Shown: positions 33,467 to 56,358, counted from the first letter of the stretch. The stretch: 64,000 nucleotides of DNA from an uncultured bacterium (GCA_949294085.1 CASFFX010000006.1:40256-104255), one strand, 5' to 3'. Notes: a model not told the origin generated them from the sequence alone. Numbers and translations: made by a program.

Positions 33467-36400
33467 ATGGATACTTGCACAATGAAAAAAATAAACAGTT
33501 TACTCCGGTTGATCCTGGGTAAAGCGGCGCTTTGCGCCGTTTTAACCGCATTATGCTGCGCGGCGGCTGCGCCGCTTTTTGCCCAAACGGCAGAAGTTCG
33601 CTATGCGGGTGTTTTTTACAAAGACGCGCCGGCTAACAACCAGGAAATGTATTGTGATTACACCCAGGAAAATGTGGGCTCTTCTGGCAGTACGACTAAC
33701 GCCAATTTTTTAACCAATTCCAATTTGTCCCCTACCACAGCGGCCGGGACGATGGTAAACGACGGCGAATTGAACTTGACTTTCTTGGGTATTTCCACCA
33801 CCAAGCCGTCTTCGGGAGAACGCACCCCCAATACGAATTACAATGTGGGGACCTCTTTCTATATTCCGCAGACAATTTCCACAACCACCTATTATTATCC
33901 CTTTGTGGTAAACAGCTATAACGTTTCTGAAGGACTGGGAATTGATGTGTCCGCTTCTACGGCGGCCAATGCCAACGCGAATAACAAAAGTTTCGTGTTT
34001 GATTATAACAATGATCCCTGGGTAGGTTCCGCCTTGTTGGAATATGACCAGCCTTATCCTTCCACTACTCCTGGTGAAAATAAATATCCTAACCATTGCT
34101 TGGCTTTGTGCATGAATGTTTATTGCACCAACAAACCCATGTCTCAGAGCACCTATTCTATTGCGTTTCCGTTGCAGCAGGTTAAGTTCGACATTGTGAA
34201 ATACTATAACGGGAAAAATGTGGAAAACCCGGAAGAAACCCCGGCAGTACGCACGATTGATTTGTATCCGAATTTGGAACAGGCCAAGTGCGGTTCCTAT
34301 GTTTGCCCGGGCGGCCCGAATGGCGAATACACTTGTTCGGCCCCGAAGTATGAATTGGTGGGCGATACCTGCTATAGCTTGGAAACCGGCGAGGCTGTTT
34401 CTGGCCAGTGCCAGTCGTCTCTGAGCACCAGTACGGGCGGAAACTGCGAAAATTATAACTGCAACTATATTATTTTTAATAACGATGGGGTTCGCACCAA
34501 TCAGCCGATTTCTTTCTGCGCCGCGTGGGACGGTTCGTACGAAATTGGCGGCGAATTCGGCAAGTCCAACGGGGACTTTGCCTTCCGCGCCACCGTATCT
34601 ACCGATGCCCCCGGTGATAATATCATTACCGATAAAATTGAATTTACCTCCACCATTGCTTACCCGGGCATGAACCAAATCCCGATACAGGTGGATGTGT
34701 CCAACGTGCACACCGTGCGCAGCACGCCGACCGTGGTGGGAAATATTACGGCCGTGTCCGCCCAGCCTTACACCTTGGCGTATCGGCTGAGCAAAGACTC
34801 GGACGTACGTGTCGCTTTGTATGATGCGTCCAACGGCGATAATATTAATTACGGCGAAAATAATACTGGAAACATTGCAATTCCGAATGCCTTGGTGCGC
34901 ACGCTGGTGGATTGGCAGCCGCGCTTGGGCGAAGGGATGAAAGGAACGGAAAACGATACCCAGTTGACGGAATTTGACTCGTGGGACGGCCGCAACGATG
35001 ACGGCTTGTTGCTGCCGGCGGGGAACTATATCGCTTCTATCCAGGCGAAGGCGCAAGATGAGTGGCCGGGGGTGGATTTCTCCCGCGCCGTTACGCGCCA
35101 AATTTCGCTGGATCCCTTGAAACTGACGGATATCGTGGTTACCGGGCTGAATAAAAAATCTACCGCTTACGCTTCTATTAATTATGTGCCTACGGAAGCG
35201 TCTAAAGTGTATTGGGAAATTTACACCCCCGGCACGACCTTTAGCGGTTCTGAAGCGACGAACAATTTGGTAACGGATTCTTCCACGCCTACCGGCACCG
35301 GCCCCACTCCTGTGGGAGGCACGCTGGTGTATCGCTCCGAAGAAGACAGAACCGCCCGCATGAACTTTACCTCTAAATGGGACGGCCTGTGCGGTATAGA
35401 AGAGGGCTGCACCCGCACGTATGCGTATAAAGAAACAATGTCTGACGGTACCACCTGCACGGTCGCAGGTGGGTGTCAACAAACCTTTGCCTATGGCGCC
35501 CCGATGCCGGACGGCAACTACGTGTATGTGCTGTGGGCGGAAATTCCGTACAACGGCAAATACTTAAATGCCGTAGGAGGAAACGGTACTCCGAGCTTTG
35601 CTTCTAATCAGACGTGTTCCCGTACCAATTTGGAAATCAACGGCCAGTGCTTTACGGGCGTAAAGACTCAGAACTATTCCATTGGACAAGTGTCCGTTGA
35701 ACGCGGCTTAGTGGATATTACCATTCAGCCTGTCAGCTATTCTACGGTGGGTTCCAGCCCGACGGCTTACGGCTTGGATCCGTTCATTTTCAAATATTCT
35801 ATCGTGCGCGACGCGACGGTAATGGCGCGGGTGGAAAACTCGGCCGGCGTACCGGTAAAGCATTTGACGCCGGAAGAAGGCGTTACCCAAGTGGCCCAGC
35901 AGCTCAACACGCTGTCTTGGGACGGGCGCGACGATCAAGGCCGTATGGTAACCCCCGGTACGTATATGTTTACGGTGGAAACGAAGGACGCCATGTTCCC
36001 GTCTGTTACCAACAAAGCGTCGGCCGTGTTCCCGGTGGACATGTACCGCGTAGTGGACGTAGCCACCACGGACGTGTATGGCGACAGCGAAGCCAAAGCC
36101 ACTATTTCTTATATGCTTTCCAAAGCGATGAACGTCCAAATTAACATCTATAATAAGGACGTTGTCATCCCGGCGTATAACTCTACCACGGGGGATTACA
36201 ATGATTACACGGTCATCTCTTCGCAGATGGCCACGGGTTACACCAACGATTTGGCGTCCGTAAACGTGTACGAACAAGGCCAAACCAACATTTTTGCCAC
36301 GTTATCCGATGTTGCGTTGGGTACGGTTGTTCGATTGCAACCGGGCACCACCAACCCGTACACGCGCGACACCATTACGACGGCCGAAAACCCGAACTAT

Positions 36401-38383
36401 GTGGAAGGCTCGGCCGTAGCGGGTGAAGAACAATACTTTGTTACGTTGAAGCGCGAAAGCGTGAACGTTACTACCAATACCACGACCACATGGCCGCCCC
36501 GCATTTGCGACAAAACGACGGACGCGGCCATCTTTACCGCTGCTGGGTATGTGGACCCGGCCAAAGTAACCTCGGCTAATGCGTGTATTTACGTAAACGA
36601 TACGACGTTTACCAACTACCCGGAGACGGCGGCCAAAGCGGCTTCCGGCGTGTTGGACGTGCGCTTACAGCCGATCAAAACGTTTGACCGCTCCGCTACG
36701 AAGGAGGGCGACGGCCTGTTGATTACCGAAGAGTGGGATGCGTTGTATTTCTACAACCCGACTCCCTCTACCGAACGCCATACGCAGGAAGAAATTACCG
36801 CCTGCAAAAACGCGACGGACCTGAAACAGTGCCCGTATGAAATGGTGCCGGACGGACAGTATCCGTTCTTCATCTCTGCGCGTTCCAACGAACCGTTCAA
36901 CCGTTATTATGCTAACGGCGGAGAAACAATTGCGGGCAGCAATCCGCAGGCAACCTATCTGCCGGGAGCTCCGTTCAAAACGGCGGCGGAAGTGGTGCAG
37001 CAGGATTACCTGTACGCGACGGAAAAACCGGTCAGCAAAATCAACGTAACCCGCGGTCCCGTGTATTTCTTGGACGGCTCGGTGGTGGTGTATCCCAATG
37101 CGCCGCAGTTGTTCAATGCGTCCTCGGGCCCGGTGTTTATCCCGCCGTATGAAATCAATTTTGCGGTGTCTCGTGCGTCCACCGTGGAAGTAGCCGTTGT
37201 GGCCTTGAAGCCCAATATGTGCTATGGCACTACGGGCACGCTCACGCAGCGCAATACCACGGCGGGCGAGGTGTGCAAATACCTCTCCACGATGACGATT
37301 GTGAACACCAGCGATTTTGACCCGAACATTACGCGCAAAATTTACTGGGACGGGACGGACAATAACGGTATCTACGTCAAACCGGGTATCTATGAAATCC
37401 GCTTGACGGCCAAGAACTACCCGGATCCGGGCCTGTACCAGGAAACGGTCAAGAGCGTAACCGTAAACGCCGACCTGCTGAAAGTGTTCGACTTGCTGGA
37501 AGCGGACGGGTATTCCCTCTCCCAGCGCAATACGGATATGAAGATCGGCTACCAGATTTCCGTTCCGATGAAAGTGGCCATCCAAATCTTCAAACCCGGA
37601 ACGACGATTTACGATTACCAAAAAGGAACCCTGCGCAACCCGACCACGGGTACGGAAGTGAAAGACATTCACGAAGTATTGGTACGGGCCATTGTGGGCA
37701 TCCGCCCCGCCACCACGCTGATTGAAGAATTGTGGGACGGCCGCGATTATGCTCAGCAGGAAGTGCCGGACGGAACCTATCCGTTCCGCTTCGTAACGGC
37801 GCTCAACTCCGCCGATATTGACAGCGTAACCGGTGAAATTTTAGGAAGCGACGATTCCAGCACCAACAGCCAGCTGTGGAGCGTGGAAAAAGTGGCCGAT
37901 ACCTATGAATACCAAAACCTGCATAAGGCTACGGTAGCCATTGGGGACGGGCGCTTCGTCTGCGAAGACTGGGAGAAAACGGTGTTCTTCTATCCGAACC
38001 CGCTGCGCGACGCTTCCAAAGGCACGTTGGAAATTACCAAGATGCCGGTGCCGGGTACGGTCTCCATCAAGTTCTTCAACTTGGCGGGCGATCTGGTGCG
38101 CGACAGCAACTACACCTGCGTAGATGCCAACAACTACCAGATTACGATGGGCAGCAGCCTGCAGTTTAACCCGGATAATACGCCGACGGGCTCTACCCAA
38201 ATGACGGATGACGACTTGGCTGCTTATCCCAATATCCGCAACGCTGCCTTGCGCTGCCGCTGGGACCGCACCAACCAGCATGGGAAGAAAGTAGCCCGCG
38301 GTGTGTACTTTGGCTTGGTGGACTTCAAAGCCCAAAACGGCCGCGAACATTGTCAGAAAGTAGTCAAAATTTTGGTGCCGTAA
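33467..38383 (+). CDS. Large secreted protein of tandem FlgD-Ig-like modules with a C-terminal T9SS-sorting-like domain
   Basis: Sec signal (MKKINSLL...PLFA), eight WD(G/A/R)...G.Y motifs, C-terminal FYPNP...FFNLAGDLVR...WDRTNQHGKKVARGVY; start may be ATG 33482. Confidence 0.75.
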   Translation: MDTCTMKKINSLLRLILGKAALCAVLTALCCAAAAPLFAQTAEVRYAGVFYKDAPANNQEMYCDYTQENVGSSGSTTNANFLTNSNLSPTTAAGTMVNDGELNLTFLGISTTKPSSGERTPNTNYNVGTSFYIPQTISTTTYYYPFVVNSYNVSEGLGIDVSASTAANANANNKSFVFDYNNDPWVGSALLEYDQPYPSTTPGENKYPNHCLALCMNVYCTNKPMSQSTYSIAFPLQQVKFDIVKYYNGKNVENPEETPAVRTIDLYPNLEQAKCGSYVCPGGPNGEYTCSAPKYELVGDTCYSLETGEAVSGQCQSSLSTSTGGNCENYNCNYIIFNNDGVRTNQPISFCAAWDGSYEIGGEFGKSNGDFAFRATVSTDAPGDNIITDKIEFTSTIAYPGMNQIPIQVDVSNVHTVRSTPTVVGNITAVSAQPYTLAYRLSKDSDVRVALYDASNGDNINYGENNTGNIAIPNALVRTLVDWQPRLGEGMKGTENDTQLTEFDSWDGRNDDGLLLPAGNYIASIQAKAQDEWPGVDFSRAVTRQISLDPLKLTDIVVTGLNKKSTAYASINYVPTEASKVYWEIYTPGTTFSGSEATNNLVTDSSTPTGTGPTPVGGTLVYRSEEDRTARMNFTSKWDGLCGIEEGCTRTYAYKETMSDGTTCTVAGGCQQTFAYGAPMPDGNYVYVLWAEIPYNGKYLNAVGGNGTPSFASNQTCSRTNLEINGQCFTGVKTQNYSIGQVSVERGLVDITIQPVSYSTVGSSPTAYGLDPFIFKYSIVRDATVMARVENSAGVPVKHLTPEEGVTQVAQQLNTLSWDGRDDQGRMVTPGTYMFTVETKDAMFPSVTNKASAVFPVDMYRVVDVATTDVYGDSEAKATISYMLSKAMNVQINIYNKDVVIPAYNSTTGDYNDYTVISSQMATGYTNDLASVNVYEQGQTNIFATLSDVALGTVVRLQPGTTNPYTRDTITTAENPNYVEGSAVAGEEQYFVTLKRESVNVTTNTTTTWPPRICDKTTDAAIFTAAGYVDPAKVTSANACIYVNDTTFTNYPETAAKAASGVLDVRLQPIKTFDRSATKEGDGLLITEEWDALYFYNPTPSTERHTQEEITACKNATDLKQCPYEMVPDGQYPFFISARSNEPFNRYYANGGETIAGSNPQATYLPGAPFKTAAEVVQQDYLYATEKPVSKINVTRGPVYFLDGSVVVYPNAPQLFNASSGPVFIPPYEINFAVSRASTVEVAVVALKPNMCYGTTGTLTQRNTTAGEVCKYLSTMTIVNTSDFDPNITRKIYWDGTDNNGIYVKPGIYEIRLTAKNYPDPGLYQETVKSVTVNADLLKVFDLLEADGYSLSQRNTDMKIGYQISVPMKVAIQIFKPGTTIYDYQKGTLRNPTTGTEVKDIHEVLVRAIVGIRPATTLIEELWDGRDYAQQEVPDGTYPFRFVTALNSADIDSVTGEILGSDDSSTNSQLWSVEKVADTYEYQNLHKATVAIGDGRFVCEDWEKTVFFYPNPLRDASKGTLEITKMPVPGTVSIKFFNLAGDLVRDSNYTCVDANNYQITMGSSLQFNPDNTPTGSTQMTDDDLAAYPNIRNAALRCRWDRTNQHGKKVARGVYFGLVDFKAQNGREHCQKVVKILVP

Positions 38384-38485
38384 AAAATATCCGCACAGGA
38401 GGGGGGCGCAAGCCCCCCGGCGGAACAGAGGCCCGCGGGGCCGCAATAAAACACAGAGGCCGGATGGTCCGGCGGAAACAAATTT

Positions 38486-39460: not shown

Positions 39461-39467
39461 GTAGGAT

Positions 39468-39647
39468 ATGAGAGCGGAGAAAAGAAAAATCTGGAACAAA
39501 AAAGGTCAAACCGCGGTAGAATATATGATAACGGCGGCGGGGCTTTTTGCGGCGATTATTTCTTTTTACGTGCTTTATTCGCATTTGGTTCCGCAGCAGT
39601 TTGAACAAGGGGCTAAAGTGATTCTGTCGGATTACAATGCAAACTGA
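39468..39647 (+). CDS. flp: Flp-type pilin (59 aa, absent from ORF track)
   Basis: MRAEKRKIWNKKG|QTAVEYMITAAGLFAAIISFYVLY...: class III leader with E+5/Y+6 and hydrophobic helix; AGGA RBS. Confidence 0.75.
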   Translation: MRAEKRKIWNKKGQTAVEYMITAAGLFAAIISFYVLYSHLVPQQFEQGAKVILSDYNAN

Positions 39648-39677
39648 AAGTTTCAAAAAAATTAGGAGGATGCTCTT

Positions 39678-39899
39678 ATGAAGTTTATCGTAGCTTTGCA
39701 AAACAAAATGGAAGCCTTGAAAGCGCAAGCTTTGGGCTGCCTGAAGAAAAAAGAAGGCCAGAACACGATCGAATACGTGTTGATGTTGGTTGTGGTCGTG
39801 GGTGTGGCCGGCTTGGCGGGTGTATTGATTAAAAAGTTTATGCCGGACTTGTTTGAACAAGTAAAAGCCAAAATCACCGGCAATATGGAAAGCATGTAA
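39678..39899 (+). CDS. flp: Flp/Fap major pilin
   Basis: LKKKEG|QNTIEYVLMLVVVVGV; AGGAGG RBS. Confidence 0.9.
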   Translation: MKFIVALQNKMEALKAQALGCLKKKEGQNTIEYVLMLVVVVGVAGLAGVLIKKFMPDLFEQVKAKITGNMESM

Positions 39900-39910
39900 T
39901 TTGAGGACGT

Positions 39911-40399
39911 ATGTTCAAATTTCGTAGGAAGTGTGGCGGGCAGGTTACTGCGGAGCTGATGTTTATTTTGCCGGTATTCATGTTGATGGTGTTTTTCGTC
40001 CTTGAATACGGCAACATCGCCTACCACACGATTATTGCAAACCACGCTTCCTATGAGTTTGCCCGTATCGGCTCGCTGGTGGCCGTCAAAAAGCCCAGCG
40101 GCCGCTCGGACAGAACGGTTATTACGCAAAAGATTAATCAGGCCAAACAGAAGGTATTTGGCTCTAAGGCGGGCGGTATTGGGGTCAATATTAAAGTGGA
40201 AACGACCGGTACCGACCCGATGTACAGACAACACCGCCACGAGGATTTGATTGTTACGGTTACTTATCCCGTGCATTTGTTGTTCCCGGGGACCAGCTAC
40301 GTGCTGGCCAGCGAACCGCGCCGCGAAGGAATTCGCCGCATTAAGGCTTCGGCCCGGATGCCGATTGAAAAGGCGTATTTGAGTTCAGACGCGAAATAG
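39911..40399 (+). CDS. tadE: TadE/TadF-like pseudopilin
   Basis: RRKCGG|QVTAELMFILPVFMLMVFFVLEYG...ASYEFARIG, DLIVTVTYP. Confidence 0.85.
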   Translation: MFKFRRKCGGQVTAELMFILPVFMLMVFFVLEYGNIAYHTIIANHASYEFARIGSLVAVKKPSGRSDRTVITQKINQAKQKVFGSKAGGIGVNIKVETTGTDPMYRQHRHEDLIVTVTYPVHLLFPGTSYVLASEPRREGIRRIKASARMPIEKAYLSSDAK

Positions 40400-40441
40400 A
40401 TTTGAAATTTTAACTTAACAGCCGTTATTTAAGGAGACGAA

Positions 40442-41194
40442 ATGAAAAAAGGAATCTTGCTTCCGGTGGTGGTAGCTATTTTGGCAGCCTTCGTGTATGC
40501 GATGATTGTCAGTAGCGCGGAAAAGAAGCTGAACGCTTCCAAAAACATCAAACAGGTGTTTGTGCCCGTGCGGGATATCAAAGAGCGCGAAGTGATTAAG
40601 CGCGACTATATCAAACCGGTGCCGGTGCCGGCGGCGTACCTGCAGAAGGACGCTTTTACCTATACGACGGACGCGGATTTCAAAGCCATTGAAAACGCCG
40701 TGGCGCGTATTCAAATTCCCAAAGGCAACCAGATTTCTAAATATGCCGTAACCTCGCTGTCTCCCGAGGCCGGCTTATCAAGCAAAATCCCGGTGCAGAT
40801 GAGAGGTTTCATTATCAATGTGCCGATGTCCACGGCTACCATGATTAAGCCCGATGACAACATTGACGTGTTGGTAACGCTGGAAGCCGTCATGAAGAGC
40901 GGGGCCCGCCAGCGGGTTACGTTTACGCTGTTGCAAAACGTGAAAGTGCTGGGGGTAGGCTCCAACTTAGGGCAGGGGCTGGACGCTAAATCGGCAGACG
41001 CTATGCAGAATAAAGAAGAAGACGCGGCCGCGTATTCGGACAGCTCGGCCTTGTCGTTAGCGCTTTCTCCGCGCGATGCGCAGTACTTGGCGCTGGCGCA
41101 GGCGGAAGGGGATATTTCCGTCATCTTGCGTTCGCATGGCGACGTAACCAACTACTTAATGGAAGTTGCAACTTTTGATAAATTATTTCAATAG
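40442..41194 (+). CDS. cpaB: Flp pilus assembly protein CpaB/RcpC
   Basis: N-terminal TM, SAF domain (VFVPVRDIKEREVI), MIKPDDNIDVLVT, TLLQNVKVLGV, LALAQAEGDISVILRS. Confidence 0.9.
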   Translation: MKKGILLPVVVAILAAFVYAMIVSSAEKKLNASKNIKQVFVPVRDIKEREVIKRDYIKPVPVPAAYLQKDAFTYTTDADFKAIENAVARIQIPKGNQISKYAVTSLSPEAGLSSKIPVQMRGFIINVPMSTATMIKPDDNIDVLVTLEAVMKSGARQRVTFTLLQNVKVLGVGSNLGQGLDAKSADAMQNKEEDAAAYSDSSALSLALSPRDAQYLALAQAEGDISVILRSHGDVTNYLMEVATFDKLFQ

Positions 41195-41208
41195 CAAACA
41201 GGATTCAT

Positions 41209-41952
41209 ATGAATAAAAAGTTTATAGCGAAAATATCGTTAGCGGTGTTACTTCTGAGCGTACTGCTGCCGGCCAGCGCCTTTGCCAAAAAGACGCGCCT
41301 GGTGGCCGTCAGCGCCGATGTGGTGGAAATCAGCGGAACCATGCAAAGCGTCAAAGGGTTTTCGTGGAACCAGCTGTTTGATTTTGAAGAAGCCACGATT
41401 CCCGGCATTTTGTCTTTGGGCGAATTTGAACGCAAAACGGCCGTTACGACGCGTCTTCGTTTGATGGAGACGGAAGGCCGCGCCCAGGTGCTTTCCAACC
41501 CGAAAATTGTTACCTCTTCCGGCAACAGCGCCAAAATTACCGTGGGCGGCAAGGTGCCGATACCGATTGTAAACAACCAGGGGGTTGGCTCGCAGCTGGA
41601 AGAATACGGTATTTTGCTCAACGTATTGCCTACGATTATTCCTGAACGGAACAACATTATTGACCTGCAGGTGCAGCTGTCCGTTTCCACGGTGGACTAC
41701 TCCAGAACCGTGGTAATCGGTACGGCGACGGCGCCTTCGTTCACCAACCGCGACGTGGAAACCCATGTGGAGCTCAACAGCGGGGAAACGCTGGTCATTG
41801 GCGGGCTGAAAAGCAGTTCGCGCAACGTGTCCGAGGACCGCGTGCCGTTTTTGGGCCGCATCCCGCTGATTGGTTTGTTGTTCAAAAACAAAGACGTAAC
41901 GGAAGAACAACGCTCGTTGTTCCTGTTCATTACGGTTGAAATTGTGGAATAG
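41209..41952 (+). CDS. Secretin (RcpA/CpaC-type), core domain only
   Basis: G.AQVLSNPKIVT.SG..A.I.VGG.VP, YGILL.V.P, VELNSGETLVIGGL, VPFLGRIPLIG.LFK. Confidence 0.88.
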   Translation: MNKKFIAKISLAVLLLSVLLPASAFAKKTRLVAVSADVVEISGTMQSVKGFSWNQLFDFEEATIPGILSLGEFERKTAVTTRLRLMETEGRAQVLSNPKIVTSSGNSAKITVGGKVPIPIVNNQGVGSQLEEYGILLNVLPTIIPERNNIIDLQVQLSVSTVDYSRTVVIGTATAPSFTNRDVETHVELNSGETLVIGGLKSSSRNVSEDRVPFLGRIPLIGLLFKNKDVTEEQRSLFLFITVEIVE

Positions 41953-41957
41953 TTTTT

Positions 41958-44261: not shown

Positions 44262-44284
44262 CCGGTTACGAAAGGGAAAAGAAT

Positions 44285-45910: not shown

Positions 45911-45912
45911 TT

Positions 45913-46803
45913 ATGAACAGCTTAGCCTTTACGTTGGGACTGAACTTGTTGCTTGCGGTGGGGATGTTTGCCGTATTCCTGACCGTGTTTGGTCTGTTGG
46001 CCCCGAAACCCAAAAAAGAGGAAATTGTGGACGTGGCCGTGCGGCGGTTCAAATCCACTTCCAGTTTTGCCCGCTTAAAACCGGAAGAAAAAATGATGGA
46101 CCGACTGGCGGTTTTCTGCCTGCACAACTTTCATTTGGAAAAAAGCCTGGAAGAAATGCATATGCAGCTGGGCAGCCCGGATACGCCGCAGCCGGTGGAT
46201 ATTTTATATACTAAAATCATCGCGGCCCTGGCTATTCCCGCGGCGATTATGCTGCTGTTTCAAGCGGTGTGGCCGGTAATTTTGGTGCCGGTTTGTTTTA
46301 TGGTGCCGGACGTGTTGATTAAAAGCAAAATTCAACAGCGTCAGGCGGAAATTTTAGGGAACTTTTCCACTACGGTAGATTTGGCGGCTTTGATTATTGA
46401 ATCCGGTTTGGACTATTTGACCGCCTTTGAAAGAATTATCAAAATTGCCAAAGTAAAAACCGTGCTGGAAGAAGAGCTGGAAAAAACGATTAACGAAATC
46501 AAGCTGGGGTATTCCCGCCGTGAAGCGCTGGAGCGGTTTTCGGCGCGCACGGGGGTAGCGGAAGTGCGTTCGCTGGTCAGCTTGATTATTCAGTCGGACG
46601 AATTGGGTACCAGCTTGGTGGATTTGCTGCGCAACTTCTCGTCGGATTTGCGCTCCCGCCGCTTAAGCCGTGCCGAAAAATTGGCGGCGCAGGCGTCCAC
46701 CAAAATGCTGTTCCCGTTGTTTATGTTTATTTTCCCGACGATTTTTATTTTAATTTTAGCCCCGATGATAAGCGGCCTTGTCAGCGGCGGTATGGGATTT
46801 TAG
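45913..46803 (+). CDS. tadC: TadC inner-membrane platform protein
   Basis: ESGLD...A, QSDELGTSL..LLR, R..RAEKLAAQASTKMLFPL..FIFPT.FILIL.P. Confidence 0.92.
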   Translation: MNSLAFTLGLNLLLAVGMFAVFLTVFGLLAPKPKKEEIVDVAVRRFKSTSSFARLKPEEKMMDRLAVFCLHNFHLEKSLEEMHMQLGSPDTPQPVDILYTKIIAALAIPAAIMLLFQAVWPVILVPVCFMVPDVLIKSKIQQRQAEILGNFSTTVDLAALIIESGLDYLTAFERIIKIAKVKTVLEEELEKTINEIKLGYSRREALERFSARTGVAEVRSLVSLIIQSDELGTSLVDLLRNFSSDLRSRRLSRAEKLAAQASTKMLFPLFMFIFPTIFILILAPMISGLVSGGMGF

Positions 46804-46814
46804 AGGATAAACGT

Positions 46815-48218
46815 ATGAAAAAATATTTCACCTTAGCCTTACTTTTTGTGATGAGCGCGGCGTGTGCCCAAGCGGCCACTTTCCGCAAAGAAATTCCCGT
46901 CCGCCAACACGGCAAAGAAGCGGGCATGCTGCTGGATTTGAGCAAAATTTCCATGGGGACGTTAAACGATGTGGAAGAAAAGAAACAGTATCTTTCCACC
47001 GTCCAGCTGGAAAAACAGCGTATTCAAAACTACACCCTGCGCATGGTGTACGAAAACGCGTACCTGCTTTATAAACAGGGCGATTATCAGCGCGCACAGG
47101 AAATGGCGCAAACCATTTTGAGCATTGACCCCAACTTCAAACAAGCCCAAACCTTGGCCCAGCAGGCCAGCAATATGGGCACCTATGGCACCATTTCCGA
47201 GGCGCAGGTGATTGAAGCCAAATTCCAGGAAACCATCCGCCTCTACGACAGCGGCCGCCTGGTGGAAGCCAACGACAAGTTAAACGAAATTTTAACGATT
47301 CAGCCCGGCAACTCCAAGGCGCAGTCCTGGAAGCGCAAAATTGATTATGAAATTGCCAAAGAATACACCCGCCGCGGCGATGTGGCCTACGAAGAGGGGG
47401 ACTACCAGCGCGCACTGGACGCGTGGTACAATGCCCTGCTGATGCGCAAGGACGACCCCAAACTGCTGGCCAAAATTTCCGATACGGAAAACAAACTGCG
47501 CAAACAGCAAGTGTCTGATTCTATGAAACAGGCCTTGGAATTTTACAACAAAGGCCAGTTTGTGGAATCGTATGCCGTGTTTGAACGGATTACCAAAATC
47601 CAGCCCGGGGATCCGCGCGTGCAAAAATACATGTCGCAGCTGAAGAACGAAATTGCCGCCGGCTATTACAATGCGGGGAATAAATCGTATAACTCCAACC
47701 GTTTTGACCAGGCCATTTCTTATTGGACCAATGCCAAAAAGTGGGGGGCGGATCCTTCCACCATGGACGGATTGATTAAACGCGCCCGCAACGCCAAAGA
47801 AAATCATTTGCGCGTAAAACAACAGCAAGCCAAACAGGCCGAAGCAGCCACCCAACAGGCGAAAGAAGAAGCCCAAAAGGCGCAAGAAGAAGCTTTGGAA
47901 GAACCGATTGAAACCGTGTCCGTAGAAGGCAACGTGCCCAGCGGCGGGTCGGTCATCCCGGGTTCTACGGGAACGATAGGCTCCTCGGTGGGTGCCGTGG
48001 GCACCAACGAAACGCTGCCCACGTTGGGCGGAACCGTCAACCGGGTGTCGGCGGAGGCCAGTGCCGCTTCCCGCGCCAAATACATTGAAGGGCTGGACGC
48101 GTTCAACCAAGACGATTATGAACGGGCCCGCCAGGCCTGGATTGTGGCCAAACAGCTGGACCCCGGCAACAGCGACGCCGATTTGGGCTTGCGCAAAGTA
48201 GAAGAGTTGCTGAAATAG
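46815..48218 (+). CDS. Secreted TPR protein (TadD/pilotin-like)
   Basis: Signal peptide; multiple TPRs (GDYQRAQEMAQTILSIDPN, GDYQRALDAW, DDYERARQAWIVAKQLDPGN); follows tadC. Confidence 0.75.
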   Translation: MKKYFTLALLFVMSAACAQAATFRKEIPVRQHGKEAGMLLDLSKISMGTLNDVEEKKQYLSTVQLEKQRIQNYTLRMVYENAYLLYKQGDYQRAQEMAQTILSIDPNFKQAQTLAQQASNMGTYGTISEAQVIEAKFQETIRLYDSGRLVEANDKLNEILTIQPGNSKAQSWKRKIDYEIAKEYTRRGDVAYEEGDYQRALDAWYNALLMRKDDPKLLAKISDTENKLRKQQVSDSMKQALEFYNKGQFVESYAVFERITKIQPGDPRVQKYMSQLKNEIAAGYYNAGNKSYNSNRFDQAISYWTNAKKWGADPSTMDGLIKRARNAKENHLRVKQQQAKQAEAATQQAKEEAQKAQEEALEEPIETVSVEGNVPSGGSVIPGSTGTIGSSVGAVGTNETLPTLGGTVNRVSAEASAASRAKYIEGLDAFNQDDYERARQAWIVAKQLDPGNSDADLGLRKVEELLK

Positions 48219-48230
48219 GAGAACAACCGT

Positions 48231-49340
48231 ATGAAACTGACTTCCAAATGGGTTTTGTGGTTCGTGCTGATAACGGTGTATGCGTCCGTTATCGGCGGGC
48301 TCTTCTATTACAATTTATTCAAGTTCGTATTTGACAAAAAACTGCAAAACGAAATGGTGGAAATGGTCCGCTTCCGTGCGCCGACCTTGGTGCAATGGCT
48401 GGCGTCCCGCCCGAAAGGGGAAGCCACCTTCCGCGAAGCCGAAATTATGAAAGGCTTGCAGCGCAACGACGACCGCATTAAAAGTTTGGTGTATTTGAAC
48501 TACGACGGCTCTATCCGCTGGCACGAAAACACCAAATTTTTGGGGATGTCGTATGCGGATTACAACAATACCGTGGGGTTTGATTCCAATGCGGTGGTGC
48601 AGGCTATTCGGGACCGGCTGCCCCGCGCCATTTTGACCGGCGGAGGGGACTATTACGACATGGCCATCCCGCTGTTGGCCAAAGGAAGCACCGTGGCGGG
48701 GGTGGTAAACGTAACCGTATCGCGCGAAAGCGCCCGGAAGCTGATTCATTCTTCTATGATTCGCTACGCTTGCGGGGCGTTTATTATGATTTTGCTGATT
48801 GGCGGCGTGCTGTATTTGTTTATGCTGCTTAAAATTTTACGGCCGCTTAATGCCCTAAAAGACAGCGTGGAAGCGGTGTCCTTGAATAATTTGACGCTCT
48901 CTTTCCCGCCTCGGAAGGATGAAATCGGGGATGTGGCGGCGGCCATAGGGGCGTTGTTGGTAAAGATACGCGAGGACATCAAGAGCCTGGAAAATGTGGA
49001 AATTATGTCGCTGGAAAAAGAACAGCGCTGGTGGAAAACCATCCTGGCGGTAACGGTGCCGAAAGGTTCCCGTGCGCTGGTGATTGACGAGAATAACAAC
49101 ATCTTGTACACCAACTTTGAGCTGCATGTACCGGGCAAAGAACGCGTGCATTTGCTGGATATTTTTGACGGCAGACAGCAGGAAATTATCCAGGTGGTGG
49201 GGGAAGCCCTGGAAAACCCGACCAAAGTTTTGCGCGGCACGGTCATCAATAAAAATGTAAAATGTTTGGTAAAGGCCGTGCAGCTGCCGGACGATGCCGG
49301 CAAGAACCGCATTGTGCTGGTGCTGGAACCCGAAAAATAA
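48231..49340 (+). CDS. Membrane sensor-like protein (TM-periplasmic-TM-HAMP-PAS-like), no output domain
   Basis: HAMP ILRPLNALK.....RKDEIGDVA; PAS-like ALVIDENNNILYTN; no H-box, GGDEF or HATPase. Confidence 0.65.
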   Translation: MKLTSKWVLWFVLITVYASVIGGLFYYNLFKFVFDKKLQNEMVEMVRFRAPTLVQWLASRPKGEATFREAEIMKGLQRNDDRIKSLVYLNYDGSIRWHENTKFLGMSYADYNNTVGFDSNAVVQAIRDRLPRAILTGGGDYYDMAIPLLAKGSTVAGVVNVTVSRESARKLIHSSMIRYACGAFIMILLIGGVLYLFMLLKILRPLNALKDSVEAVSLNNLTLSFPPRKDEIGDVAAAIGALLVKIREDIKSLENVEIMSLEKEQRWWKTILAVTVPKGSRALVIDENNNILYTNFELHVPGKERVHLLDIFDGRQQEIIQVVGEALENPTKVLRGTVINKNVKCLVKAVQLPDDAGKNRIVLVLEPEK

Positions 49341-49364
49341 AGGGATTTTGTGTTAGGAGAAACT

Positions 49365-49634
49365 ATGAAAGTAGAAATCAAAAAAATAGGCATTTCAACG
49401 GTGTTGTTTTCCGTTTTCCCGCTGGCCGTATTCGTGGTGATGCTGCTTAGCGCGTTTATGGAAGTGTTTAACCCGGACGCCGCCATCACCGCCGCTTACG
49501 TGATGAGTTTGATTATTCGGGCCATTCAGGGCACGTTGCTCTTTTTGGTTTCCACGGTGTTCTTTTTGCTGGCCTACAATTTGTTGTGCGCCGTCGGCAT
49601 CCGCGGCGTGCGTGTAGAGTTGGAAGATAAATAA
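49365..49634 (+). CDS. Small membrane protein, DUF3566-like
   Basis: MKVEIKKIG...two TMs...YNLLCAVGIRGVRVELE; AGGAG RBS before ATG 49365. Confidence 0.55.
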   Translation: MKVEIKKIGISTVLFSVFPLAVFVVMLLSAFMEVFNPDAAITAAYVMSLIIRAIQGTLLFLVSTVFFLLAYNLLCAVGIRGVRVELEDK

Positions 49635-49648
49635 GGAGAGTAGGGGTA

Positions 49649-50596
49649 ATGAAAAAATTACTGACATTATTGCTCGCTTGTGCGGTAGCCGGCTTGGCCT
49701 TTGCGGCTCCTGCTAAAAAAGCGGCTCAAAAAGCCAAAACTCCCGCTAAAATCAAAGCGGAATTCATCGTTGTTGAATCGGACGAATATGACGCGGGAAA
49801 AGAGGACCCGCAATTGACGGCCGGCATTGCCCAATTCTTAAACGCCGACCCCAAAGTAACCAAGGTTTCTTACAAAGACGCCGCGGCCGACCCGAAGCTG
49901 GCCGAGCTGGACTACAGCTTCCTGCCGCTGTATTTGATTAAGAAAACGGACGACATCCGCACCAAACTGGAAAAACACATCCAGTACGGCTATGCCTTGG
50001 AAAATGACGAATTTATTATTCTCCCCCGTCAAACCCGCCAGGGCGTCTATACCGCCAAAAGCGGCACGCCGGGCGTGATGGAAATTTTTGTTATGTCCCA
50101 ATGCCCCTATGGCGCCATGGCCGAAAACCTGGTCATCCAAGCGCAAAAAGACGGCAAACTGCCCAAGGATAAAGAAATTAAACTGCGCTATGTGGTCAGC
50201 TACGACGAGAAAAACGGTTTCTCCAGCCTGCACGGTTCCGCCGAGTGGGAAGAGGATATCCGCCAACTGCTGATTGCCAAATACTATCCGGAAAAATTAT
50301 GGAAATACCTGGAAATCCGCAACAAGGATTATCGCTCCAGCCGCTGGGACAAAGCGATGGAAGAAGCCGGTATCAACAGCAAAAAAATCATGAAAAAGTT
50401 TGACGAAGAAGGCGTAGAGCTGTTGAAGGAAGAAGCCAAATACGGCAAAGAATACGGCGTCAATGCGTCGCCCACGTTCCTGTATGAAGGCAAAGTGCAG
50501 CTGGACTTCGGGTCTGCTTCCAAGATTGACGGGTTCTCCTTCTTGAATCCCAATGCGGCCCAATCCGGTGCCGCCGCTCCGGCCGGAAGCTGCTAA
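49649..50596 (+). CDS. Secreted thioredoxin-fold (DsbA/GILT-like) protein, monothiol CPYG
   Basis: Signal peptide, EIFVMSQCPYG, SLHGSAEWEEDIRQ, cis-Pro-type loop GVNASPTF, C-terminal GSC. Confidence 0.65.
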   Translation: MKKLLTLLLACAVAGLAFAAPAKKAAQKAKTPAKIKAEFIVVESDEYDAGKEDPQLTAGIAQFLNADPKVTKVSYKDAAADPKLAELDYSFLPLYLIKKTDDIRTKLEKHIQYGYALENDEFIILPRQTRQGVYTAKSGTPGVMEIFVMSQCPYGAMAENLVIQAQKDGKLPKDKEIKLRYVVSYDEKNGFSSLHGSAEWEEDIRQLLIAKYYPEKLWKYLEIRNKDYRSSRWDKAMEEAGINSKKIMKKFDEEGVELLKEEAKYGKEYGVNASPTFLYEGKVQLDFGSASKIDGFSFLNPNAAQSGAAAPAGSC

Positions 50597-50655: not shown

Positions 50656-50793
50656 CAAAAGCGTCCGGGTGAGGGGCTGTGGCGAAGCGGCTGATCCGGT
50701 TGTTTTAGAAGAGCGAGGCGAGCCGGTGGAAACAGGCGGCGCCCAGAAGGAACCAGCAGGGAGCGTGCACCCTGCGTGAGAGGAAAATTGTTC

Positions 50794-52689
50794 ATGAAGC
50801 GATTGCGCGGATTATTTAGCAAAGCGGTTTTTGTGTTGATTTTAATTTCCATCGTGCCGGTGGTAATTATTGCGTACCACGTGATGGGCGTGGACAGCCG
50901 CATTTTGAAAAATGAAATTTTGCAAAAACAGCAAACGGTAGCCAGCCGCTTGGCCTCGGTGGCGCGGGCACATATCAACCGCAAAGCGCAGCTTTTTTCC
51001 ATATTTGTAGATTTGCATACCGACTTTGGCGGACACGAATTTATCAACGAGAAAGATTTGCGCTATTTGCTGGCGCGCAATCCGTCCATCGTGTCGCTTT
51101 CGGTGTTAAATCCGCGCGGGGTGCGGATTTTGTCCGCTGGCAAACCGGTGATGGCGGGTACGGCGGCTTATGCCAAAATTCTGCCGGAAATTGTGCGGAC
51201 CTGCGTACAGCAGCGGGACGAATTTATCAGCGACGTTTATCCCGCCGATGAAAATTTGTTTGCTTTAATGGCATTTCCCATGCGCCAGCATTTGGGCGAT
51301 CGGCAAGTGTCGGGAATTTTGGTGGCGGAAATGAATTTGAAAGAGATGGGAGAATCGCTTTCGCAATCCTATCCGCTGGATATGAACGCCATTATTGCCA
51401 CAGCCCGCGGGGAAATTATTTCGTATAACGGCGCACCGGACGGCCTGGCGGAAGGCACTCAGCCGGAAATGGAAGCCAAGGTGCGTGCCATCAACGAACA
51501 GTTGGGCAGCAATCGCAGCGGTGAGGTTGTTTTGCCCAATGGGGACAAAGTGCTGGTGGCCGTTTCTAACTTAAATGTGCCGCGCTGGCGCGTGTATGTG
51601 GATCAGCCGGCCAATGTGGCGGCGCAGCTGTTTGTGGAGAGCACGTTCAATTCCATGTGGGACGTGCTGGTGCTGGTGTTGGCGATGTTGGCGTTTGTAG
51701 TGGTGGTAAGTTATTGGGTAATTAAACCGATTACACGCCCGCTGGAACGCTTGCGCGAGGCGGCCGTAAAACAGCGGGAAAATGACGATTTTGTCGTAAG
51801 AAAAGAAGACGTAGAAATTCCCAATAATGAAATTGGGGAGCTGGCGGCGGCGTTTGTGGATATGTCGGCCGCGCTGCATACGCGCCGGCAGGAATTAATT
51901 CGGGCGCAAACGGAATTGGCGCAGGTCAATCAGGCGTTGGAAAAACGCGTGGAAGAACGCACCCGCGAATTAAAAACCGCCAGCAAAGAATTGGTCAAGG
52001 CGGAGCGCCTGGCCGCCATCGGGCAGATGGCGTCCATTATCAGCCACGAAATCCGCAACCCGCTGGCGGTCATCAGCAATGCAACGCGGCTGATTAAAAT
52101 GCTGGTGCGCTCGCCGGACCCGAAGCTGATTAAACAGTTCGGCATTATTGATGCCGAAATTAAACAGGCCAACAGCATCATCAGCGAGGTGCTGGGGTAC
52201 GCCCGCACGCGGGATTTGATTTTAACCACAGTGGATTTGAACAGCTATTTGCGGGAACTTTTGCTGGCGTATCCGTTTATCCCGGGCATTAAGCTCAAGG
52301 AAGAGCTGGACCCGGAAAGCGTGCGCATTAAAGTAGATGCGGAAGAAATCAAACAGGCTATCCGCAACATTGTTTCCAACGCCATAGAAGCCATGCCCAC
52401 GGGCGGAACCCTGACGGTGGGAACCAAAGTAGGCCGCCGCGTGGTGTGCATTTATATTGCCGACCAAGGCACCGGCATTACGGACGATGTGCGCAAAAAA
52501 ATGTTTGCCCCGTTCTTTACCACCAAGGCCCGCGGAACGGGCTTGGGCCTGGCGGTGGTGGGCAAAGCCATCAGCCGCCACAAAGGCAAACTGTTTATTA
52601 ACAGTGTGCCGGGCAAAGGCTCGTGCTTTCAGATTTATCTAAAAATTTACAGAAAACCCGGAGACACCAATTATGGAGAAGCAAGTTAA
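50794..52689 (+). CDS. Membrane sensor histidine kinase (Cache-like, HAMP, HisKA, HATPase)
   Basis: Two TMs, HAMP ITRPLERL..NEIGELA, H-box SHEIRNPL, NAIEAM, DQGTGI, FTTKARGTGLGL; ATG 50794 after GAGAGGA. Confidence 0.92.
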   Translation: MKRLRGLFSKAVFVLILISIVPVVIIAYHVMGVDSRILKNEILQKQQTVASRLASVARAHINRKAQLFSIFVDLHTDFGGHEFINEKDLRYLLARNPSIVSLSVLNPRGVRILSAGKPVMAGTAAYAKILPEIVRTCVQQRDEFISDVYPADENLFALMAFPMRQHLGDRQVSGILVAEMNLKEMGESLSQSYPLDMNAIIATARGEIISYNGAPDGLAEGTQPEMEAKVRAINEQLGSNRSGEVVLPNGDKVLVAVSNLNVPRWRVYVDQPANVAAQLFVESTFNSMWDVLVLVLAMLAFVVVVSYWVIKPITRPLERLREAAVKQRENDDFVVRKEDVEIPNNEIGELAAAFVDMSAALHTRRQELIRAQTELAQVNQALEKRVEERTRELKTASKELVKAERLAAIGQMASIISHEIRNPLAVISNATRLIKMLVRSPDPKLIKQFGIIDAEIKQANSIISEVLGYARTRDLILTTVDLNSYLRELLLAYPFIPGIKLKEELDPESVRIKVDAEEIKQAIRNIVSNAIEAMPTGGTLTVGTKVGRRVVCIYIADQGTGITDDVRKKMFAPFFTTKARGTGLGLAVVGKAISRHKGKLFINSVPGKGSCFQIYLKIYRKPGDTNYGEAS

Positions 52690-53794
52690 AATTTTAGTAG
52701 TGGACGACGATAATAACCTGCGCGAAACGCTGGTGGATTTGCTGGAAATTGAAGGCTACAAAGTCTATCAGGCGGGCAACGCCCAGGAGTGCTTGGACAT
52801 TTGCGCCAACGAATTTTTTAACGTGATTTTGATGGACTACAACCTGCCCGGCGAAACGGGGCTGGAGCTGATCCGCAAAATCCGCTCGTTTAACCAAGAT
52901 ACGCAAATTATTATGATTACGGCCTACGCTTCCCTCAACGCCATTATGGAAGCCATGCAGGAATCGGTGTACGATTTCCTGATGAAACCGGTGGATTTTG
53001 ATTACTTAAAACGCACCATTAACCGCGCGCTGGACAAGTATTTCTTGGAACAGAGCAACAAGGAATTGCTGGCCCAGTTAAAAACCCGCAATGCGGATTT
53101 GGACCGGCTGAACAATATGAAGTCCAAATTTTTCTCCATTGTGTCGCACGATTTGTCCAACTCGCTGATGACGCTGAAGATGAGTTTTGACATGCTGAAA
53201 AAGAAACTCAACCCCGACGAGGACCAAAAGAAAAAAATGATGTTTATGGACGAATCCATCAGCCAAATTGAACACTTGATTAAAGACCTGGTGGATTGGG
53301 CCGCCATTGAAAAAGGCAAACTGCGCATTGAAAAAACGCGTTTTGAATTGACCGAAAGCCTGAAGAAAACGGTGGAAATTTTCCGTGCCAAAGGCGCCAA
53401 GCGCAACATCCGCGTAACGTTTGAAAGCTGCGGGGCGGTGCCGGTGTTTGCCGATGAAAAACGCATCCGCCAGGTGATTTCCAATATTCTGGAAAATGCC
53501 GTGCGCCACACGCCCGACAACGGCAGCATTGAAATTGTCGTTAGCAAAATAGATGAAAAAAATGCTAAAGTGTCGGTAACGGACTCGGGAGACGGCATTG
53601 ACCCCGAGCAGGCACCCAATTTGTTTACCAGCTTTACCCAGGTGGGCGACAAAAGCCGCGTGGGCCGGCTGGGGTTAGGGTTGTCCATTGCCAAGGACAT
53701 TATTGTCAACCATGGCGGACGGATTTGGGCGCATAGCGATGGATTGGGCAAAGGAGCGTCGTTTAACTTTACGCTGCCGATTGCAAATGCTTAG
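52673..53794 (+). CDS. Cytoplasmic hybrid REC-HisKA-HATPase protein
   Basis: ILVVDDD, ILMDYNLPG (phospho-Asp), FLMKP, H-box SHDLSNSL, NAVRHT, DSGDGI, GLGLSI. Confidence 0.9.
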   Translation: MEKQVKILVVDDDNNLRETLVDLLEIEGYKVYQAGNAQECLDICANEFFNVILMDYNLPGETGLELIRKIRSFNQDTQIIMITAYASLNAIMEAMQESVYDFLMKPVDFDYLKRTINRALDKYFLEQSNKELLAQLKTRNADLDRLNNMKSKFFSIVSHDLSNSLMTLKMSFDMLKKKLNPDEDQKKKMMFMDESISQIEHLIKDLVDWAAIEKGKLRIEKTRFELTESLKKTVEIFRAKGAKRNIRVTFESCGAVPVFADEKRIRQVISNILENAVRHTPDNGSIEIVVSKIDEKNAKVSVTDSGDGIDPEQAPNLFTSFTQVGDKSRVGRLGLGLSIAKDIIVNHGGRIWAHSDGLGKGASFNFTLPIANA

Positions 53795-53817
53795 CTTTTA
53801 ACAACGTTGAGGGAGTT

Positions 53818-54516
53818 ATGCCAATGAATAAGAAGAAAAAAGTAACCGTACTGATAGCCGACGATCAAACGCTGTTTCGCGAAGGGATCAAAGACGTACT
53901 GAACGGAGAAAAATGGATTGAGGTGGTGGGCGAAGCTGCCGACGGATTGGAAGCCGTAGCCAAAGCCAAAAAACTCAAGCCGGACGTGGTGCTGATGGAC
54001 ATCAAACTGCCCAAAATGGACGGCATTAACGCCACGCGCCAAATCCGCCAGACGTGCCCGGAAGTAAATGTGCTGATGCTTTCCAGCTTTGAAGACGAAG
54101 CCCACGTGCTGGACGCGATTCAAGCCGGGGCCAACGGGTATTTGTCCAAAATGTTGCCGGCGGCGGAATTGGTAAATTCCATCAAAACGTTTACCAGCGA
54201 AGGGCTGATGATTCCGCAGCAGCTGATGGGCAAACTGCTGCATGGGCTGCGCAAAATGGGGAACAACGGGATGCCTTCGCAGGCTACGCTGACCAAAACC
54301 GAAATTAAAGTAATGGACTTCTTGGGCAAGGGCCTTAGCAATAAGGAATTGGCCAAGGAACTGAACTGCAGCGTCAAAACGATTAAGAACCATTTGAACA
54401 GCGCTTTTCATAAACTGGGCGTAAGCAGTCGCACCGAAGCGGTGGTAAAAGCGATTGAAAAAGGGCTGATTTCGTCTGAAGGGACAATCGTTCCCGACGA
54501 TCACGACGGAGAATAG
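53818..54516 (+). CDS. NarL/LuxR family response regulator
   Basis: LIADDQTLFREG, VLMDIKLP, GANGYLSK, HTH LTKTE..V...GLSNKELA...SVKTIKNHL. Confidence 0.93.
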   Translation: MPMNKKKKVTVLIADDQTLFREGIKDVLNGEKWIEVVGEAADGLEAVAKAKKLKPDVVLMDIKLPKMDGINATRQIRQTCPEVNVLMLSSFEDEAHVLDAIQAGANGYLSKMLPAAELVNSIKTFTSEGLMIPQQLMGKLLHGLRKMGNNGMPSQATLTKTEIKVMDFLGKGLSNKELAKELNCSVKTIKNHLNSAFHKLGVSSRTEAVVKAIEKGLISSEGTIVPDDHDGE

Positions 54517-54520
54517 TTTT

Positions 54521-54697: not shown

Positions 54698-54700
54698 ACT

Positions 54701-55813: not shown

Positions 55814-56358
55814 TGATGAGAAAACTGTTTCCTTTTCACTCCAAGCAAGGCCAAGCCACGACGGAAGTCGTGTTGCTGTTCCCGCTGTTTGTCATTTTTA
55901 TTTTGTTTATTATCAAAATTTTCGGGTTGCTGATTTTAAGCCAAAAAATGGAAATTGCCGGCTATTATGCGGCCCGGCGCTTTCAGCTGCAGTCCCACGT
56001 AACGGATTATTATGCCAACACCTGGGATAGGCGCTTTTTGAAAAAGGACATCCAGGAAAAAGTGGAAAGCTACCTGGGGTTTGATAACCCGGGCATGCGC
56101 AAGTTTTTGAATTTAAGTGAATTAAAGATGGATATTCAAACTTCCGGCACGTGGGTAAAAGTGGTGCTGACGGCCCACACCCGCCCGCCGCGGATTCGTT
56201 TTCTGTGCAATTACAACAAGGACCAGGTGTGCGACCGCGACGATAAATGCCTGAAAGGGTACGCCTTCCTGTGCGAGACGGGCGGCCAGGTGGAAGTCAT
56301 CAAATACGTGGGCCATAATGAACGCCCCTCACCTTACCAGCGGCCGGAAGGCACGTAA
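55813..56358 (+). CDS. tadE: TadE/TadF-like pseudopilin
   Basis: HSKQG|QATTEVVLLFPLFVIFILFII...AGYYAARR; ATG overlaps the upstream TAA. Confidence 0.8.
   Translation: MMRKLFPFHSKQGQATTEVVLLFPLFVIFILFIIKIFGLLILSQKMEIAGYYAARRFQLQSHVTDYYANTWDRRFLKKDIQEKVESYLGFDNPGMRKFLNLSELKMDIQTSGTWVKVVLTAHTRPPRIRFLCNYNKDQVCDRDDKCLKGYAFLCETGGQVEVIKYVGHNERPSPYQRPEGT

Follow-up and report, generated by a model that had tools for sequence, protein, structure and literature searches.

A giant cargo protein and its PorV-like barrel at the head of a Tad pilus locus in Elusimicrobiota: a candidate surface attachment module

What does a pair of genes resembling cargo and barrel of type IX secretion (the T9SS) do at the head of a Tad pilus locus? 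The question is raised by a 64,000 nt stretch of DNA from an uncultured bacterium (GCA_949294085.1, CASFFX010000006.1:40256-104255), called the window throughout, in which positions 33467-56358 of the plus strand form a single tight gene array. The genome is that of a gut member of the Elusimicrobiaceae (phylum Elusimicrobiota, about 'Ca. Avelusimicrobium'); it has 1.51 Mb in 12 contigs and is 95% complete. From 33467 to 48218 (+) the order is cargo gene, barrel gene and flp-flp-tadE-cpaB-secretin-tadZ/tadA fusion-tadB-tadC-TPR, and regulators follow. To our knowledge T9SS has been described as confined to Bacteroidota or to the Fibrobacteres-Chlorobi-Bacteroidetes (FCB) group, and motor (PorLM) and ring (PorKN) are regarded as necessary for it. 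A first-pass annotation made from the sequence alone had proposed that the pair was either co-opted as anchor or chaperone of a Tad-exported adhesin, or forms one attachment apparatus with the pilus in a lineage without classical T9SS. We recovered its open reading frames (ORFs) at the same positions. On balance our data favour a cognate pair of surface protein and anchor, for which a minimal export route of the SprA type and joint expression with the pilus, as a single attachment module, are proposed.

The first gene of the array codes for the giant protein (features and coordinates are collected in Table 1). It matches PF13860 with 75.5 bits, its modules carry WDG..D..G..V.PG.Y motifs, and it is rich in cysteine. 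Its C-terminus reads ...VFFYPNPLRD...SIKFFNLAGDLVRD...RCRWDRTNQHGKKVARGVYFGLVDF...KILVP, and the terminal motifs quoted in the first-pass annotation are indeed part of the 33467-38383 product. Identities within the genus amount to 53-84% for the giant protein, 72-94% for the PorV-like barrel and 84-96% for TadZA. The giant gene is the fastest-evolving of the operon in this same-genus comparison, which fits an exposed adhesin-like protein.

The C-terminal domain (CTD) was evaluated by aligning 13 orthologues over their final ~130-150 aa, every member being scanned individually. The PorU CTD model matches 13/13 orthologues (best E 3e-10), as do TIGR04183 (13/13 at E<=1, best 2e-7) and CHU_C (13/13, best E 8e-8). 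The PorZ CTD model matches 12/13 with the best E of 2e-15, and FlgD_ig matches 10/13 (best E 3.4e-8). Against a custom hidden Markov model (HMM) built from the orthologues the window CTD scores 106.7 bits. Internal repeats of the giant protein match this HMM weakly, and the giant protein is the only one with an orthologue-type CTD in the genome. Invariant positions of the alignment include P22, N23, P24, G124 and K146; Y126 is nearly invariant. The AlphaFold2 (AF2) model of the domain shows 7 strands with a predicted local distance difference test (pLDDT) score of 76, and its three best PDB folds are PorU 6za2 and PorZ 5m11. The window CTD agrees with type A in its C-terminal position, in its PNP, GxY and terminal K-x-hydrophobic motifs and in its fold, an Ig-like beta-sandwich. 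Given the HMM matches across 13 orthologues and the PorU/PorZ folds, the cargo tail is T9SS-CTD-like as had been claimed.

The CTD is interrupted between strands by an insertion of ~50 aa that has a conserved pair of Cys residues (window 37967-38380; likewise the orthologues of the loci L131, L133 and L134). It was seen only in the family Elusimicrobiaceae, and the model confidence is low there (pLDDT <50).

The second gene codes for the barrel. A profile of 17 orthologues has PorV 6h3i_F as its sole PDB match (E 1.4e-5). The AF2 model (pLDDT 76, 14 strands) was compared using Foldseek, which ranks PorV first (8gl6_F and 6h3i_F, TM-score 0.64-0.65), FadL and TbuX lower (0.51-0.56) and TodX also behind. 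The equivalog scores are 56 bits for PorQ (cut-off 220) and 17 bits for PorV (cut-off 250). The window copy is the only PorV-like barrel of the genome; a second NF033709 match was rejected as PorV, being a true FadL (Toluene_X 213 bits). By profile and fold ranking the barrel is thus PorV-like and not FadL-like, in line with the first-pass annotation. All named orthologues in public records are called 'hypothetical protein'. We predict that giant protein and barrel are a cognate pair in which the barrel recognises the CTD.

The locus was also encountered in public records of bins that go by the names 'uncultured Spirochaetes', 'Muribaculaceae', 'Eggerthellaceae' and 'Duodenibacillus' (L048, L050, L103, L113), with barrel identities of 76-93%. 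These bins are probably mislabelled or contaminated.

The pairing of CTD and barrel was counted for every full-length PorV-like barrel in the fetched loci (n=63). In 55/63 a CTD-bearing ORF ends directly upstream on the same strand. Three further barrels are paired but fall outside the gap window used, one of them probably by a frameshift joining both ORFs, while three lie at contig ends and are not assessable and two have the nearest CTD ORF ~3 kb away. Pairing therefore holds for 58/60 assessable barrels. Barrel and CTD distances co-vary with a Mantel r of 0.85 overall and 0.79 in 31 non-orthologous cassettes (0/2000 permutations as high), which indicates that the cassettes are inherited and duplicated as units. 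Same-order relatives with genomes of 2-3.4 Mb carry 8-25 barrel paralogues each, and the Tad-linked copy is the only cassette kept in the present genome and in its reduced genus of 1.1-1.9 Mb. Most cassettes, at least 30 of those examined, are not near any Tad gene. A CTD cargo with its cognate PorV-like barrel is a phylum-wide two-gene cassette. The pair is not an invention specific to Tad but one copy of this general cassette, which modifies the first reading.

Some variants of the cassette were observed. In G055 two tandem CTD-bearing giant genes (L134:3-1667 and 1849-5961) lie 5' of one barrel gene. A seeming cargo-barrel fusion in G040 (L038:13001-17125, G040:C94) was discarded. Its 1375-aa frame has out-of-frame residues where the last CTD strand should be, and this stretch immediately precedes the Met and signal peptide of the barrel; the joined frame is probably a frameshift or an assembly error. 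Proteins of 520-700 aa with the N-terminal half only of the PorV-like domain are a separate sub-family (G052, L185:520-2253; ~600-aa ORFs in G029, G033, G036 and G040). The G052 protein additionally has TPR repeats and lies directly 5' of a short secretin.

Is the association with Tad more than a local coincidence? The order giant-barrel-flp-flp-tadE-cpaB-secretin-tadZA-tadB-tadC is found in 80/80 same-genus loci as far as the contigs extend. The cargo-barrel-Tad order is kept in 16 same-order loci from two other families and in 10 further family or class loci, including that of the cultured Elusimicrobium minutum Pei191. In a phylum sample of 121 genomes of Elusimicrobiota, 46 of the 49 class genomes carrying the barrel have it 2.4-3.7 kb from TadZA on one contig; the remaining three are explained by contig breaks, one of which was verified, and 49/49 are consistent with the order. 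A rearrangement suspected in G143, with barrel and TadZA on different contigs, was dismissed as a contig break inside the secretin gene. Across the class, where proteins share 30-40% identity, the order persists next to a varying upstream flank. Genes 5' of the giant gene are not syntenic outside E. minutum, which places the start of the conserved block at the cargo gene. Two families of the same class (f4 and f10, three genomes) have neither barrel orthologue nor TadZA and keep SprA. The linkage of cargo, barrel and Tad is far beyond chance, and the pair is linked to tad in relatives by class-wide synteny.

Outside the class the picture is more varied. G057 and G071 show regulators, CTD cargo, barrel, short secretin and TadA in order, and G111 has secretin, cargo, barrel and two TadA genes. 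In G066, G057 and G140 a cassette is located 5-10 kb upstream of Tad genes (secretin or cpaB-tadZA), G140 showing the barrel only at the contig start. In 10/19 Tad-type loci outside the class there is no cassette.

The first-pass annotation had listed no SprA, PorKLMN or PorU homologue. This is true for the window, but a homologue of the translocon is encoded elsewhere in the genome. The SprA-family outer-membrane protein of 1883 aa (G000:C9:68788-74439; L008:8789-14440) matches TIGR04189 with 107 bits (E 3.5e-31, cut-off 200 bits). A profile of 8 SprA homologues has F. johnsoniae SprA (6h3i_A and 6h3j_A, ~1e-37) as its only PDB matches; the single-sequence phmmer search of the homologue against PDB gave no match. 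The homologue is present in 114/121 phylum genomes. Its orthologue in E. minutum, Emin_0110, is named 'Cell surface protein SprA' in UniProt and hypothetical by NCBI. With a translocon homologue in the genome the cargo-barrel pair is not orphaned.

The SprA gene has a 483-aa secreted Trypsin_2-type peptidase directly 5' (L008:7225-8676) and a ComF-like phosphoribosyltransferase 3'. LptF/LptG lie divergent and upstream of it. An RcpC-domain lipoprotein is not among its direct neighbours in this genome.

Based on these findings the favoured SprA-type route would operate as follows. Sec would export the rod-like Ig-repeat surface protein. By homology with SprA-PorV-CTD of F. johnsoniae, the barrel would then dock on the SprA-family translocon and the cargo would cross the outer membrane. 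The CTD would probably remain uncleaved and bound to the barrel, because no PorU sortase was found. The barrel may in this way serve as a non-covalent outer-membrane anchor, as do PorQ for PorZ and PorV for PorU in Porphyromonas, and a barrel anchoring its own cargo would explain one barrel gene per cargo gene. One orthologous cassette would have become fixed as the leading part of the Tad/Flp operon. A shared promoter and the phosphorelay encoded downstream would then govern the joint production of adhesin and pilus as one attachment module. Of the two earlier interpretations, that of one co-regulated attachment module is preferred to that of a Tad-exported adhesin.

Several points weigh against this proposal. 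The window CTD stays below the curated cut-offs (TIGR04183 15 vs 23 bits, PF18962 17.1 vs 27 bits) because the ~50-aa insertion splits the domain. The six-frame scan of the genome with TIGR04183 gave no match at all, which reflects the same insertion-split, low-scoring CTD and not the absence of a CTD. The domain is a divergent relative of the TIGR04183/PF18962 domain and no curated member; a paralogous cargo in G071, from another class, passes the PF18962 cut-off with 40.3 bits. The barrel itself is a near miss to NF033709, PorV/PorQ_fam (cut-off 90 bits; 87 bits with the protein, 78.7 bits by six-frame scan). Co-inheritance alone would make barrel and CTD co-vary, and their co-variation by itself is no proof of binding. 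In searches run without a T9SS-positive control genome, GldK, GldL, GldM and GldN had no match in the genome, GldM was found in 0/121 phylum genomes and GldL by one weak match in 121, the only PorU match (13.6 bits) fell within the Ig region of the giant protein, and TIGR03519 for PorP/SprF had no match in the genome. PF11751 did not match the window barrel either. The motor, ring and sortase of T9SS were thus not found here, which is no proof of their absence. The energy supply of a motor-less SprA is a further difficulty. The genome G080, of the same family and 98% complete in 8 contigs, carries cassette and Tad with SprA undetectable even by profile; either the assembly has a gap or SprA is really lost, which would argue against an SprA-dependent route. 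Finally the barrel lies directly beside the short secretin and/or TadA in three distant genomes, which would also fit a direct partnership of barrel and secretin.

In view of the missing GldK/L/M/N, PorU and PorP matches, the supposition of a lineage without classical T9SS has stood up, and no complete T9SS was found elsewhere in the genome. A wider interpretation, which we put forward tentatively, is a minimal type-IX-like pathway of the Elusimicrobiota lacking motor, ring and sortase. A short SprA would act in it with many specialised PorV-like barrels, each encoded beside its own CTD cargo and doubling as its shuttle and its permanent anchor, and one cassette would have been taken into the Tad operon as a component of the attachment apparatus based on the pilus. 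This latter cassette may have physical contact with the secretin, which has no N-domains.

The Tad part of the array comprises Flp pilins, TadE, CpaB/RcpC, secretin, TadA and TadB/TadC in one locus (Table 1), and the gene order given for it in the first-pass annotation, on the same strand and 3' of the barrel, was confirmed. The secretin has no periplasmic N-domains and is short (245-280 aa) in all relatives. The fusion of TadZ and TadA is kept phylum-wide; its TadA part reaches 329.9 bits for TIGR03819 (cut-off 373) and 209 bits for T2SSE. A prepilin peptidase (TadV/CpaA) was not found in the Tad locus, the sole Peptidase_A24 gene of the genome being located at G000:C3:150429-150773. Further downstream the region of orf94 and orf315 is syntenic in the loci L131-L134 and L147, and receiver and kinase genes flank the locus in relatives too. 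The domain search with orf370 gave no match. The secreted orf315 (window 49649-50596) has a CPYG motif and a weak thioredoxin-like match; a role as disulfide helper for the giant protein is speculation.

Table 1. Features of the cargo-barrel-Tad array and its flanks (positions counted from the first nucleotide of the window).
Feature	Position	Strand	Basis
Sigma-70-like promoter candidate, TTGACA-17-AAAAAT with TG, ~120 nt 5' of the giant gene	33316..33344	+	consensus scan
Giant secreted Ig-repeat surface protein, 1638 aa	33467..38383	+	signal peptide, several FlgD-Ig-like modules, CTD
C-terminal sorting/anchor domain, type-A-like, aa 1501-1638	37967..38380	+	HMM, fold
Two GC-rich hairpins without T-run (38401-38418 and 38459-38473)	38401..38473	+	read from sequence
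PorV/PorQ-family 14-strand outer-membrane barrel, 324 aa	38486..39460	+	HMM, profile, fold
Flp pilin 1, 59 aa, ...KKG/QTAVEY...	39468..39647	+	weak Flp_Fap match; motif read from sequence
Flp pilin 2, 73 aa, ...KEG/QNTIEY...	39678..39899	+	weak Flp1_like match; motif read from sequence
TadE-like pseudopilin	39911..40399	+	PF07811 40.1 bits
CpaB/RcpC	40442..41194	+	TIGR03177 102 bits (cut-off 71); PF16976
Minimal secretin, 247 aa, core only	41209..41952	+	PF00263 144.5 bits, residues 86-247
TadZ (ParA/MinD-like)-TadA/CpaF ATPase fusion	41958..44261	+	CbiA 15-232, T2SSE 382-661
TadB-like platform protein, long N-terminal extension	44285..45910	+	T2SSF 62.8 bits
TadC-like platform protein	45913..46803	+	T2SSF 59.5 bits
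TPR protein, possibly TadD-like accessory	46815..48218	+	TPR families; syntenic in relatives
HAMP-domain membrane protein, closes the Tad block	48231..49340	+	HAMP match; synteny
orf94 and orf315 (secreted)	49350..50596	+	no Pfam match; weak TIGR00411; family-conserved
Phosphorelay: HAMP histidine kinase, hybrid receiver-kinase, LuxR-type response regulator	50776..54516	+	Pfam
orf370 (N-terminal transmembrane segment) and second TadE-like protein, 196 aa	54701..56358	+	PF07811 21.7 bits for 55768-56358

Intergenic gaps from the barrel gene through the TPR gene are 2-42 nt. The tight same-strand array of the first-pass annotation is thereby upheld, with a measured range slightly wider than its 7-42 nt. 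The first flp gene starts 7 nt past the porV stop codon. The spacer of 102 nt between cargo and barrel is the sole longer gap in the block from giant to TPR gene; its two hairpins are possibly an attenuator or an mRNA-stability element. No terminator-like sites were called on the plus strand between 38383 and 39468. The promoter candidate upstream of the giant gene is weak, such sites being no commoner here than in shuffled sequence. From this layout we infer that the giant gene through the tad genes form a co-transcribed operon.

A GGDEF cyclase gene (window 31749-33248) lies directly 5' of the giant gene. It shows 53% identity in E. minutum and is not kept in other families. A GGDEF/HAMP protein is also encoded within the Tad supercluster of G071 (L143:14224-16026). 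These neighbours hint at control by cyclic di-GMP.

Other explanations differ from the SprA-type route mainly in the part they assign to the Tad machine. We consider it unlikely that this machine is an exporter resembling the type II secretion system, with the giant protein leaving via the minimal secretin under the push of the Flp (pseudo)pilus and the barrel only anchoring the CTD. Such a role would suit the position of the cassette, which comes first in the Tad operon of all class members inspected, as well as the barrel genes adjoining short secretin and/or TadA in G057, G071 and G111. G080, keeping cassette and Tad with SprA undetected, and the lack of a T9SS motor among our matches point in the same direction. 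However, at least 30 cassettes are located away from Tad genes and need a general route, and the SprA homologue is nearly universal. Moreover recognition of CTD and PorV is known only with SprA (PDB 8gl6, 6h3i), and just over half of the Tad-type loci outside the class (10/19) go without a cassette. The family f21 is without TadZA, but 4/5 of its genomes searched have long secretins, so the SprA and secretin routes are not separated by it.

Quite unlikely in our estimate is that the barrel, perhaps together with the giant protein, is an outer-membrane accessory of Tad which inserts, positions or stabilises the N-domain-less secretin or forms a structure of pilus base or sheath. In its favour, the secretin has only 247 aa and is without periplasmic N-domains. 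Distant lineages have PorV-like genes next to secretin genes, the PorV-like-TPR protein of G052 beside a secretin included, and barrel orthologue and TadZA are jointly absent in f4 and f10. Yet the consistent partner of the barrel is the upstream CTD (58/60) and not the secretin. Besides, a TPR protein, possibly TadD-like, is already present in the operon, and Tad loci devoid of a cassette have short secretins as well.

Very unlikely is the absence of any functional link, i.e. an ordinary surface-protein cassette beside a Tad operon that was vertically inherited. Larger relatives have many cassettes of a generic kind, and outside the class ~6-9/19 loci are Tad-associated as compared to a rough chance of 10-20% within 10 kb. 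Against this stand the order kept class-wide at 30-40% identity next to a changing upstream flank, the gap of merely 7 nt between porV and flp, the retention of this sole cassette in the reduced genus, its absence together with Tad in f4 and f10, and the independent rearranged versions beside secretin and TadA genes. That the barrel is a FadL-type channel for hydrophobic substrates and unrelated to the CTD is hardly credible: it belongs to the same superfamily, has FadL, TbuX and TodX as next-best folds and matches UPF0164 weakly, but PorV comes first by sequence profile and fold, the PorV/PorQ HMMs match while Toluene_X does not at E<=0.01, a true FadL (213 bits) is encoded elsewhere, and a CTD gene is paired with the barrel in 58/60.

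The proposed SprA-type module can be compared with known systems. Two proteins of T9SS keep their CTDs, PorU being held by PorV and PorZ by PorQ. The resulting PorZ-PorQ/PorU-PorV attachment complex of P. gingivalis resembles the present pair in a retained type-A Ig-like CTD on a 14-strand barrel of the PorV/PorQ family, retention being predicted here. The CTD of the Elusimicrobia is closest to those of PorZ and PorU, and the barrel matches both PorQ and PorV. In contrast, the cargo is an Ig-repeat rod and not a sortase or a carrier of anionic lipopolysaccharide (A-LPS), and the genes are adjacent, 1:1, within a Tad operon and in the phylum Elusimicrobiota. Unlike in the T9SS of P. gingivalis, PorU, PorZ, PorK/L/M/N and PorP were not found in the genome, again in searches lacking a T9SS-positive control. 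A genetic link between a cargo and its own outer-membrane barrel, required to secrete or anchor the cargo, has been reported for type-B CTDs and PorP/SprF-like barrels (PMC9143113, PMC12618676). SprB-SprF of F. johnsoniae and PG1035-PorP of P. gingivalis follow the same logic of a cargo-barrel cassette, whereas the barrel described here is of the PorV/PorQ family and the CTD is type-A-like with a weak CHU_C match as well.

With SprA-PorV of F. johnsoniae (6h3i, 8gl6) the genome shares an SprA homologue, a PorV homologue and a CTD substrate. The SprA homologue is however shorter (~1750-1900 aa vs ~2400 aa) and scores 107 bits with a cut-off of 200; neither GldLM motor nor GldKN ring was found, and many specialised PorV paralogues take the place of one general shuttle. 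The Tad/Flp type IVc systems (tad-rcp of Aggregatibacter, cpa of Caulobacter) have the Flp G/xxxxEY motif, TadE, CpaB/RcpC, secretin, TadZ, TadA, TadB, TadC and TPR protein in common with the locus. They differ from it by its fused TadZ-TadA, its secretin of 247 aa without N-domains, the missing prepilin peptidase in the locus and the CTD cargo and PorV-like barrel coming first. TXSScan reports T9SS only in Bacteroidetes and in no other clade (PMC4793230), and new Tad systems in Elusimicrobia have been mentioned (PMC6668835). In the literature we found no account of this type of locus, and nothing on PorV in Tad loci or, for Elusimicrobia, on SprA, PorV/CTD pairs or systems resembling T9SS.

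Taken together the locus looks like a stripped-down relative of T9SS, apparently without motor and sortase, and a cassette fixed at the head of the Tad operon suggests an unrecognised accessory of the Tad pilus. As the locus is present in the cultured E. minutum Pei191, these hypotheses are directly testable. Should the wider interpretation be true, SprA, PorV and CTD make up a core that is present and functional beyond the FCB superphylum and in the absence of GldLM. The anchoring logic of 'one cargo, one barrel', lately shown for type-B CTDs, would gain a second and independent example. A phylum with a nearly universal SprA homologue, cognate cassettes and no detectable motor or sortase would moreover reveal which components of T9SS are its ancestral, self-sufficient core.

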